64,000 bases of DNA from an uncultured Clostridia bacterium (GCA_947623865.1 CANQIC010000007.1:1406-65405), one strand, 5' to 3'; counted from the stretch's first letter, positions 22,663 to 42,501 are shown. A program made the numbers and translations. Notes: generated by a model not told the origin, from the sequence alone.

Positions 22663-22737
22663 TGGTGACCCGTACGGGAATCGAACCCATGATTCAGCCT
22701 TGAGAGGGCTGCGTCTTAACCGCTTGACCAACGGGCC
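22663..22737 (-). tRNA. tRNA-Glu (anticodon CUC)
   Basis: The minus strand reads GGCCCGTTGGTCAAGCGGTTAAGACGCAGCCCTCTCAAGGCTGAATCATGGGTTCGATTCCCGTACGGGTCACCA. The cloverleaf folds, the anticodon loop is CU-CUC-AA, and CCA is encoded. Confidence 0.9.
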
Positions 22738-22807: not shown

Positions 22808-22926
22808 ATAAATTGTTGTTTGTTTCATGTTCGGAAAATTCAGGACAGTCCCAAAAATCCCCAAAATTGGTGATTTTTAGGGACAGTCCCTAGGATTTTC
22901 CTCTCACAAACAAATTACAATTTATC
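22808..22926. repeat. palindromic intergenic element, copy B
   Basis: gataaattgttgtttgtttcatgttcggaaaattcaggacagtcccaaaaatccccaaaattggtgatttttagggacagtccctaggattttcctctcacaaacaaattacaatttatc. Abuts the recN stop codon. Confidence 0.92.
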
Positions 22927-22927
22927 A

Positions 22928-24538
22928 CTATCCCTTGCTAATTAACTCTTTTGCATATTGAATTGATACTTTTGTAATTTCTCCACTTGCTATCCTTGCA
23001 ATTTCTTCTACCAAGCTATTATCTTTTAACAAAAATACATTAGTTTTTGTTTTTCCTTCTTCTACTTCTTTATTTATATAATAATTACTATCACCTTTTG
23101 CTGCTATTGTTGCTAAGTGTGTTACACATATTATTTGATGATTTTTTGCTATTTGTTTCATCTTTTCTGCAACTTTACTTCCAGCTATTCCACTTATTCC
23201 TGTATCTATTTCATCAAATACTAACGTTTCTACTTCATCTACATCTGCAAGTACCCTTTTTATGGCAAGCATTATCCTAGACATTTCTCCACCTGATGCA
23301 ATTTTTGTAAGTGGTTTAAAATCTTCCCCAATATTTGTCATTATTAAGAATTCTATTTCTTCTTGCCCATTTTCGGTAAATTCATTCGCTTCATTATAAT
23401 TGATATTCACTTTAAATTTTGTATGTTTCATTTCTAAATCTACCAAATCTTTTTCAATTTCTTCTGATAATATTTTACTAATTTTTTCTCTAATTTCATG
23501 CATTTGCTTACATTCATCTTTCATTTCAATTTCAAGAAAAGATAAATCTGATTTTAATTTATTTGTATATTCTTCTAGATTTTCTATTTCATATATTTCT
23601 TTTTCTACATCTTCTTTATATTTTAAAATCTCTTGAATATCATTACCGTATTTTCTTTTCATTGAATATATAAGATTAAGTCTTGATTCTACTTCGTCAA
23701 TTTCTTTATCATCAAAATAAATGTCTTGTGCAAATCTCGATATGTTTCTTCCACAGTCTTCCAAATCATAATATATACTTCTTATCTTTTCTGCTGATGA
23801 TTTATATTCATCATTTATATTCTCTATTTTTTCTAATGCCTTCATTGCAGATGTAATAGAGTCAATAGATACATTTAAAATTTCATTTTCTGCTATACCT
23901 AAATTTTTTGAAAGTTTTTCTGCATTTAATATTTTTTTCTTTTTTTCTTCTAGACTATCTTCTTCCCCTTTTATTAAATTTGCTTCTTCTATTTCATTTA
24001 CTTGATATTTAAGCAAATCTAATTTTCTTTGTTTTTCTTTATCATCTCCGTAGTTTTTTGCTATTTCTTCTTTTAATCTTTTATATTGCTTATACTTCTG
24101 TAAATAATCTAATTTTAAATCTTTCAGGTTGTTTCCAGCAAATTTGTCTAAAAGTTTTATATGTACAGTTGGATTTAATAATGACTGATTATCATGTTGT
24201 CCGTGAATATCTAATATTTTCGATACAAAACTTTTAAGTTCTGAGACTGTTACCATTCTTCCATTTATTTTGCATAAATTTTTTCCATTTATATTTATTT
24301 CTCTTGATAATATGATATCTTCATTATTAATTGATACGCTCATTTCAACAAATGAATAATCTTCGCCTTTTCTAATCATATCTTTTAAAAATCTTCCGCC
24401 TGCTAAAATTTCGAGTGAATCTATTATAAGAGTTTTACCTGCACCTGTTTCTCCTGTTAAAACATTAAATCCTTTATTTAAGTCGATGCTTATTTCATCT
24501 ATAATCCCAATATTTTTTATATGTAATGTGTTTATCAT
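22928..24538 (-). CDS. recN: DNA repair protein RecN
   Basis: MINTLHIKNIGIIDEISIDLNKGFNVLTGETGAGKTLIIDSL (Walker A), long coiled coils, and a C-terminal LVFDEIDTGISG. The start at 24538 follows AAGAGGTGG. Confidence 0.93.
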   Translation of the reverse strand: MINTLHIKNIGIIDEISIDLNKGFNVLTGETGAGKTLIIDSLEILAGGRFLKDMIRKGEDYSFVEMSVSINNEDIILSREININGKNLCKINGRMVTVSELKSFVSKILDIHGQHDNQSLLNPTVHIKLLDKFAGNNLKDLKLDYLQKYKQYKRLKEEIAKNYGDDKEKQRKLDLLKYQVNEIEEANLIKGEEDSLEEKKKKILNAEKLSKNLGIAENEILNVSIDSITSAMKALEKIENINDEYKSSAEKIRSIYYDLEDCGRNISRFAQDIYFDDKEIDEVESRLNLIYSMKRKYGNDIQEILKYKEDVEKEIYEIENLEEYTNKLKSDLSFLEIEMKDECKQMHEIREKISKILSEEIEKDLVDLEMKHTKFKVNINYNEANEFTENGQEEIEFLIMTNIGEDFKPLTKIASGGEMSRIMLAIKRVLADVDEVETLVFDEIDTGISGIAGSKVAEKMKQIAKNHQIICVTHLATIAAKGDSNYYINKEVEEGKTKTNVFLLKDNSLVEEIARIASGEITKVSIQYAKELISKG

Positions 24539-26697: not shown

Positions 26698-26817
26698 CTT
26701 TTCACTTCCTTACAATTCTAAGTTAACTCAATACTTTTAATATTTTAACATAAAAGCAAGCCATTTTCAAATAATTGCTTGCTTAAGATAAATTGTAATT
26801 TGTCGTTATTATTTAAA

Positions 26818-40402: not shown

Positions 40403-40512
40403 ATAAATTGTTGTTTGTGAGAGGAAAATCCTAGGGACTGTCCCTAAAAATCACCAATTTTGGGGATTTTTGGGACTGTCCTGAATTTTCCGAACATGAA
40501 ACAAATTATAAT

Positions 40513-40515
<3 letters not shown>
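40403..40515. repeat. palindromic intergenic element, copy C (inverted relative to A and B)
   Basis: ataaattgttgtttgtgagaggaaaatcctagggactgtccctaaaaatcaccaattttggggatttttgggactgtcctgaattttccgaacatgaaacaaattataatttat. Its end overlaps the ligA stop codon. Confidence 0.92.

Positions 40516-42501
<1,986 letters not shown>

Follow-up and report, generated by a model that had tools for sequence, protein, structure and literature searches.

The question raised by the locus at 22808-22925 is whether a ~115-bp palindrome that recurs beside genes of an uncultured Clostridia bacterium is a mobile element, a structure that serves its host, or something of both. The window, meaning the whole 64,000-nt stretch of DNA that was analyzed, has a composition of ~27% GC and carries nearly all of its genes on one strand. 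With 28 nt of the reported core as the probe and 100 shuffles as the control, exactly four sites in the window are matched at 0-1 mismatch (0 expected). Boundaries set by alignment and repeat finding place copy A at 1554-1667 (+), copy B, the copy under study, at 22808-22925 (+), copy C at 40403-40516 (-), and copy D at 47641-47758 (-). Identity among the four is 94-100%. Copies B and D have a 118-bp form and are 100% identical across 118 nt, whereas copies A and C have a 114-bp form that is 94-96% identical to B and lacks 4 nt near one end. The original prediction of four near-identical copies, with C and D inverted relative to A and B, agrees with the core probe, the alignment, and the repeat finding, and its coordinates were right to within 1-3 nt of the refined boundaries.

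The genes beside the four copies had been named tsf, recN, ligA, and pdaA, and Pfam gives the same identities (EF-Ts, RecN/SMC-like, NAD-dependent ligase, and a pdaA-like polysaccharide deacetylase). The accompanying claim that every copy abuts a gene's 3' end is correct for B, C, and D but not for A. Copy B lies 2 nt from the recN stop (22928-22930, -) and 70 nt away from a tRNA gene (22666-22737). In copy C, the ligA stop codon is itself the TAA at element positions 2-4 (40513-40515), and the RBS of the next gene lies 10 nt beyond the other end of the copy. The TAA at positions 2-4 of copy D is likewise the stop of the pdaA-like gene; at the other end of this copy the yabP/yqfC start is 23 nt off, and the interval (47618-47640) holds an RBS. 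The tsf stop is 46 nt away from copy A, and the start of the next gene lies 145 nt downstream of this copy. Copy A sits just downstream of the canonical terminator of tsf (1679-1708, -), which has a stem of 12 bp and a T-run.

Each window copy is framed by perfect 16-bp terminal inverted repeats (TIRs), beginning with ATAAATTGTWRTTTGT and ending with its reverse complement, ACAAAYWACAATTTAT. In copy B the left TIR, ATAAATTGTTGTTTGT, occupies 22808-22823 (+), and the right TIR, which reads ATAAATTGTAATTTGT on the minus strand, occupies 22910-22925 (-). The 16-mer terminus has 14 matches in the window at up to 2 mismatches against 2.55 expected, which bears out the predicted inverted-repeat termini. 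Among 140 ends, positions 3-9 of the terminus are 99-100% conserved and positions 1-2 are 82-86% conserved. The 61-nt core of copy B (22837-22897, +) contains two GGGACAGTCCC-type boxes (22842-22852 and 22880-22890) that flank a hairpin composed of A5, a stem-loop, and T5 (22853-22878). This core is nearly invariant in an alignment of 59 distinct copies, partly as an ascertainment effect, the loci having been fetched with the core 22-mer. The linkers of ~10 nt between terminus and core vary by genome, reading TTCCGTATT in one MAG, TTTCATGTT in the window and a second MAG, and either GTGTTTCAG or TTTGTTTTT in a third. Small asymmetries within the core are identical in all copies, so that every copy has a definable orientation.

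As predicted for an imperfect palindrome, copy B folds into a single long hairpin with arms of ~45 bp (-52.1 and -55.1 kcal/mol on the two strands; z -9.2 and -7.5; none of 200 shuffles equally stable). A single hairpin is also the fold of all 60 full-length copies, with a mean MFE of -46.8 kcal/mol and 43 center-spanning pairs. In the arms, pair 30-95 occurs as GC in 30 copies and as AU in 24, and a compensatory change from G-C to A-T across the arms (pair 42-81) is private to copy A. This double change retains the long hairpin and breaks both of the small box palindromes, and the long hairpin is therefore the structure that has been preserved. Chimeras joined from halves of different genomes fold ~2 kcal/mol worse than natural copies, which is a weak test of arm co-evolution. 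Two inverted units, one long hairpin, and compensatory change form a trait of REP/REPIN sequences, and all three are present in the element. No ORF is specific to the element, which is non-coding as originally described. Searches of Rfam (Rfam 15) at the gathering threshold with the window and 12 loci gave no element match (only two tRNAs reach threshold in the window), and a search with a composite element gave no relevant match even at E<=1.

The distribution of the family was examined by scanning one genome per species of GTDB with the exact core 22-mer, which gave 70 matches at 64 loci. All matches except one are in rabbit-gut ("Lapin") MAGs, and all but one of these are labelled uncultured Clostridia, the other being on a contig of 2.9 kb that comes from the same sample and was binned as Bacilli. 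The exception, an Acidaminococcaceae match (L051), sits within an ORF, has no further element feature, and was set aside as chance. Two matches only came from a JGI metagenome scan; every other feature of the element is absent from them, they were likewise judged chance, and one falls in the same Acidaminococcaceae gene. The element had no match in IMG/VR (exact core) or, by blastn, in PLSDB plasmids and INPHARED phages. BLAST of the window and loci with copy B found 84 copies, 60 of them full length (105-120 bp, mostly 113-118), and the element occurs at least 80 times in ~0.5 Mb drawn from related rabbit-gut Clostridia, which amount to five or six MAG species. Exact-core counts are 23, 19, and 22 in three fragmentary MAGs, where they are lower bounds, and fewer in two more; the high copy number that had been expected from the window is thereby confirmed. 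The window is 75-95% identical to syntenic stretches of these MAGs and so represents a further species of the same clade.

Crude gene calls around 39 copies assign 29 to tandem, 7 to divergent, and 3 to convergent gene pairs. In the typical layout, the upstream stop lies in or against one terminus and the next start codon follows 10-45 nt past the other. Gene-facing ends (ORF of at least 80 codons) number 91; the TAA at element positions 2-4 is the stop in 28, a stop abuts the end in 6, and TAG at position 9 accounts for 4. At a further site in the window, termed site E (52785-52982), a 65-aa protein takes its last three codons from the terminus. The copies are randomly oriented with respect to transcription. 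The terminator role that had been proposed for the element is weak, given that no U-tract follows the full hairpin (there are only weak internal terminator-like matches, with a 9-pair stem and 3 GC), that tsf keeps its own terminator beside copy A, and that downstream starts are so near. For most copies a co-directional start lies those 10-45 nt downstream, which means that transcription within operons has to pass through the element. Strong termination is unlikely, and protection of 3' ends or RNase III processing between cistrons would be the most reasonable role and more likely than termination.

Relatives in which the same sites are empty bear on how the element came to be there. Outgroup loci were fetched via homologues of YabP/YqfC, encoded beside copy D, at 81-91% protein identity. 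At site D in four outgroup species (L072/L075, L073/L076, L079, and L080), the element is absent and the deacetylase and yabP are 10-12 nt apart or overlapping. The junction reads ...AAA TAG AGAGGTCAAT ATG in L079, ...ATA TAG AGAGG... in L080, and ...CAA TAA AGAGGGG... in L075, and the two genes overlap in L076. The deacetylase is equally long with or without the element, which places the insertion exactly at the deacetylase stop codon. Site E is a spacer of 17-38 nt in L075, L076, and L077. Every ingroup species compared has sites D and E filled, whereas 4-5 outgroup species have them empty, so the empty sites that the original prediction had proposed to look for in relatives do exist. These comparisons show that the element is an insertion, acquired by the ancestor of a small rabbit-gut Clostridia clade in spacers at gene ends and between cistrons. 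Both sites work without the element in outgroups, and any function it has is therefore not essential. Two intermediate relatives have short site D fillers of 77 nt (L077 5924-6000) and 38 nt (L078 3179-3216) that start with ATAAATT and have no core; these may be degenerate remnants or excision footprints.

Outgroup DNA also contains parts of the element. At site C, directly after the ligA stop, L076 has a 64-nt hairpin (17055-17120) with two boxes, another center, and neither linkers nor termini, and L075 has permuted, tail-to-tail arms of the box hairpin after the ligA stop (18003-18060), again without the 16-bp termini. The outgroup hairpins after ligA are 60-64 nt long with two GGGACNGTCC boxes each, which suggests that the box unit may be older than the TIR-framed element. 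Given such a core-only hairpin at the end of ligA, the core may also have a host function. One alternative goes further and takes the whole element to be a host-functional intercistronic structure of RNA or DNA (operon punctuation, a partial or bidirectional terminator, or a protein-binding site) that is no longer mobile, with its sites kept by selection and its uniformity a by-product of recombination. Besides the box-hairpins after ligA in outgroups that lack the termini, this proposal would account for the occupation of every resolvable orthologous site in compact 27% GC genomes, for the A5-stem-T5 symmetry of the center, which is like that of a bidirectional terminator, and for the tight packing of stop codon and RBS against the two ends. 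It also draws on a core that is nearly invariant while the linkers drift, although that invariance is inflated by core-based locus fetching. However, sites D and E function empty in several outgroups, unrelated interiors are swapped in at the same site, orientation is random relative to transcription, and copy A stands behind a perfectly good terminator. We consider a purely host-functional structure unlikely.

Within the ingroup, positions are fixed and contents change. Orthologous site pairs between ingroup species were matched by their flanks (74-93% flank identity), and no clean empty site was seen among them. In one pair (L027 site vs L014), the other species has a different ~400-bp region with no termini, and the pair is not resolvable. 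Core orientation across orthologous pairs is inverted in about 9 and the same in about 7, and at several sites the standard copy of one species corresponds to a composite or a different interior elsewhere in the clade. Positional orthologues have a mean identity of 89.5%, compared with 97.9% for the best paralogue in the same genome. Since its insertion, the element has been inherited at fixed sites. Recent transposition would make lineage-specific filled sites and so cannot explain this pattern; copies have instead been replaced or corrected in place. Neither presence/absence nor orientation polymorphism was seen in the window's own species, in which three further contigs are identical at site D. 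It had been allowed from the outset that the copies might prove to be ordinary terminators conserved syntenically in relatives. Syntenically conserved they are, but they are not ordinary terminators, because the closest match of a copy is a paralogue in its own genome rather than its positional orthologue.

The same termini also frame other interiors. In the window, the sister element of ~198 bp at site E (52785-52982) has the family termini and an unrelated palindromic interior, with a fold of -68.3 kcal/mol (z -10.2), and at the orthologous site one other species has the standard element and two more have composites that bear REPs. An exact solo terminus with no partner (ATAAATTGTAATTTGT, 26788-26803, +) adjoins a terminator-like hairpin and is probably a remnant. 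In the other loci, family termini enclose an AT-rich palindrome (L011 3845-4030), GC-rich hairpin doublets or arrays (L024 7293-7449, L041 5997-6230, L030 5168-5560, and L068 1333-1479), and composites of 400-450 bp that include the standard core (L034 and L035). Several of these different-interior elements occupy sites orthologous to standard copies. The two composites L034 and L035, which belong to one MAG, also contain a conserved module of ~180 nt, AGAGAAGCGCGAAATGGTTCATTTATATTTTACGAAGTGAGC...GGGAGCGGTCTATTT (L034 930-1110 and L035 225-400); it has no Rfam match and could be a small RNA or a further mobile module.

The GC-rich hairpins are classic GTAG-tagged REPs, in which GTAGGGG is followed by a GC-rich palindrome and then CCCG, and they have 82 matches in the DNA of the window and loci. 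One inverted doublet, GTAGGGGTCGTCGCCCTCGGCGACCCG ... CGGGTGCTGTGGGCAGCGACCCCTAC, is free of any terminus frame in the window (60295-60362), and the same REP family is also nested within composites bearing the 16-bp termini. REPs are mostly known from Proteobacteria. In these 27% GC Clostridia, GTAG REPs form inverted doublets and arrays with a period of 52-65 bp; besides the window doublet there are 80 sites in the loci (e.g., L030 5208-5440 and L023 40-290).

A cognate transposase of the IS200/IS605 or RAYT type, as suggested in the original prediction, was not found in the ~0.5 Mb of DNA searched, which is a fraction of each MAG. Within the same ~0.5 Mb, no pair of termini up to 5 kb apart spans a gene-sized segment, and no multi-copy or transposase-like ORF was found. 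Queries with IS200 and YafM sequences (RAYT, Y1/HUH) returned nothing significant by phmmer among 741 ORFs, the two weak matches being YqeY and DUF1647 by Pfam and not transposases. By sequence inspection, integron attC sites were also rejected, the flanking genes being core housekeeping genes and the ends unlike RYYYAAC/GTTRRRY.

The presence of true REPs in the same genomes bears on a second alternative, in which the element is of the REPIN/BIME type and is moved by a RAYT-like (HUH, Y1) tyrosine transposase. The (C)TAG-GGGAC-N-GTCCC boxes would then be minimal REP units in an inverted doublet, and spread or correction would occur via single-stranded hairpins, with no target-site duplication. 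In such a REPIN-type reading, the GGGACNGTCCC boxes are putative recognition units. REPs are not only abundant beside the element but interleaved with it inside the same termini, and the right-hand box, CTAGGGACTGTCCC on the bottom strand, is one base from the GTAG tag. That one base counts against the proposal, however: the tag is CTAG, and the boxes read CTAG-GGAC-N-GTCC(C) or CAGGAC-N-GTCCC, whereas the RAYT-type enzyme of E. coli requires GTAG and a stem mismatch (PMC3333891). Judged by its boxes, the element falls outside the GTAG/REP definition. The outgroup box-hairpins are arranged head-to-head and tail-to-tail like REP dimers, but a 5-bp stem with a 1-nt loop is unlike a REP hairpin. 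Compensatory changes in the hairpin and the lack of a convincing target-site duplication (TSD) are both in favor, as are TIR families carrying a GGGGWSAS motif, which have been linked to RAYT-like genes (PMC3733652). Against these stand the very different interiors that have only the 16-bp termini in common, which points to recognition of the termini, and the failure to find a Y1 transposase in ~0.5 Mb with the phmmer queries and Pfam on the two weak matches. Mobilization by a RAYT-like enzyme appears improbable.

The flanks of the element bear on a third alternative, an active cut-and-paste MITE of a TA-targeting DDE transposon (IS630/Tc1-mariner-like), with ends AATTGT...ACAATT, duplication of TA, and changes of content and orientation by repeated excision and re-insertion at a hot-spot TA. 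Site D of one species, WF, reads AGA-TA-[AATTGT...ACAATT]-TA-G AGGAGAG, which compared with the empty sites of L079 (AAA TAG AGAGG) and L080 (ATA TAG AGAGG) is a clean TA duplication inside the TAG stop. Nearly every copy has TA at its two ends, and the outermost base is the most variable, as flanking target DNA would be. The A of this TA (position 3), however, is 99% conserved, against 86% for position 2, and removal of the element together with one TA restores nearby in-frame stops in 19% of cases compared with 35% in control frames. The sole enriched direct repeat is of 2 bp and lies outside the termini, just beyond ATAAATT...AATTTAT (16 of 59 copies vs 7 expected, z ~4), and direct repeats of 3-5 bp are not enriched. 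The search for a target-site duplication that had been proposed for the element thus yielded one site that fits TA and an enriched 2-bp repeat outside the ends, but the TA reconstruction has no general support. A weak flank consensus, TTAR before and YTAA after the element, was rejected both as a TSD and as a longer TIR, since the state of the left flank is independent of that of the right within copies. Site D in the window has an extra TA-rich stretch, TATATAATATAG, that could represent excision footprints. Yet it is implausible that re-insertion took place independently at every orthologous pair compared and left the ingroup without a clean empty site, and the ~0.5 Mb yielded no transposase. 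An active element of this type is very doubtful.

The element is probably a member of a non-autonomous, TIR-bounded family of palindromic mobile elements with MITE-like anatomy and BIME-like mosaic behavior. Its initial spread would have relied on a trans-acting enzyme that recognized the 16-bp termini, and its present homogenization would proceed mainly by copy-to-copy replacement, for which gene conversion anchored in the shared termini is the likely mechanism. With termini that are inverted repeats, a donor could align either way, which would explain the random orientation. For RecA-dependent exchange 16 bp is short, and this counts against conversion at the termini; instead of gene conversion, copies could be excised and re-inserted repeatedly at hot spots. 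The copies would be co-transcribed with the flanking genes and form an RNA hairpin with arms of ~45 bp, and the terminus, A-TAA-ATT, would often provide the stop codon of the upstream gene. Somewhat unlikely is a reading in which the termini are fixed "slots" at gene ends whose contents are actively exchanged and flipped between copies within a genome by a dedicated or hairpin-triggered replace-in-place process, as opposed to ordinary transposition into new sites, with host roles in operon punctuation and the donation of stops. The contents seen in such positions are the standard core, REP doublets, and other palindromes. If true, the slots would constitute a mode of persistence for bacterial repeats that is unlike those of classical MITEs and REPINs.

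The favored reading of a non-autonomous mobile family can be placed among known systems. The family is classified as new and the kind of element, small, non-coding, and mobile, as already known, and the original assignment to the MITE/REP/Correia kind stands for a multi-copy, non-coding, TIR-bounded palindrome. In anatomy it is a MITE, being small (well under ~300 bp), non-coding, TIR-bounded, and multi-copy, with empty sites in relatives; of two further defining MITE features, a target-site duplication of fixed length is suggested by TA at one site, and no cognate IS was found in the DNA searched. Correia/NEMIS elements of Neisseria are ~100-155 bp long, non-coding, present in many copies, bounded by TIRs, and hairpin-capable; they are intergenic beside genes and co-transcribed, their RNA hairpin is a substrate of RNase III, and a TA target has been proposed. 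The Clostridia element is like them in size range, copy number, lack of coding capacity, TIRs, whole-element hairpin, and intergenic placement. It differs in host phylum and has no known sequence similarity to Correia elements, and a TA duplication fits one of its sites but has no general support among its copies. Correia elements also have abundant presence/absence polymorphism between strains, whereas the Clostridia element fills every resolvable orthologous site in the ingroup.

In behavior the element is closest to REP/BIME/REPIN sequences, with mosaic loci, conserved positions that hold genome-specific sequence, a compensated hairpin, and co-resident GTAG REPs. The likeness extends to a palindromic structure, placement mostly downstream of coding regions, and a ~100-nt inverted-doublet architecture (PMC3733652, PMC3333891), as well as to the mixing of several motif types at one locus and variable content at a conserved locus. 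The Clostridia system as a whole resembles the mosaic BIMEs of enterobacteria (PMC3333891, PMC3733652). It differs in that its boxes are CTAG-tagged 11-bp palindromes, whereas REPs combine GTAG with imperfect hairpins of 20-40 nt, in that its 16-bp TIRs are common to other interiors, and in that no RAYT was found in the DNA examined. ERIC/IRU of enterobacteria and RUP of Streptococcus pneumoniae are imperfect palindromes of ~107-127 bp that lie in transcribed intergenic regions, including operons, in either orientation and do not code for protein; the TIRs of RUP are related to an IS630-family element, and its target is TA. Length, imperfect palindromy, operon spacers, both orientations, and lack of coding capacity are shared with the Clostridia element. 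It has no known sequence similarity to these families, no Rfam match, and no cognate IS in the DNA searched. Its own TAA is the upstream stop at 28 of the 91 gene-facing ends, which is not known as a hallmark of ERIC/IRU or RUP.

Small palindromic repeats have been well studied in Proteobacteria and a few pathogens, and we know of hardly any description of them in gut Clostridia. The element and the GTAG REPs form a rich mosaic repeat system in an uncultured, small-genome, 27% GC Clostridia lineage. Such repeats break MAG assemblies and alter gene 3' ends, and the stop codons and last codons that the element supplies to some genes matter for annotation. The family is a natural experiment, with an insertion time bracketed by empty outgroup sites, dozens of orthologous sites, and clear turnover in place, and it could serve to measure gene conversion against transposition for elements of this kind. 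The dynamics of replacement in place at fixed "slots" are its most interesting, as yet unproven, aspect.

Several further features of the window were recorded. Beside the element at 52785, a SAM-dependent methyltransferase (51893-52754, -) is represented by a 209-aa ORF followed by an overlapping 89-aa ORF; its orthologues in L075, L076, and L077 are 256-287 aa long, and the window copy may be a frameshifted gene. In uvrC (53237-55025, -) there are two overlapping ORFs of 412 aa and 192-199 aa, an arrangement also found in the outgroup L076 (2930-4727), and L075 (2931-4718) has a single ORF of 595 aa. Two species share the position of the split, which points to a conserved frameshift or an arrangement of two genes and away from an error in sequencing. 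AT-rich intergenic palindromes that have no sequence relation to the element lie at 51747-51821 (arms of 32 nt, 100% complementarity), 55604-55669 (30 nt, 93%), and 58741-58825 (41 nt, 85%), and may be terminators or members of other repeat families. A candidate large conserved non-coding region at 1-1516 was rejected, since the 5' part of an 877-aa ORF, which leaves the window, accounts for it (L055). Three tandem paralogous genes, with ORFs of 311, 437, and 329 aa, occupy 4724-8480, where their DNA segments (repeat families D1-D3) are 63-94% identical.
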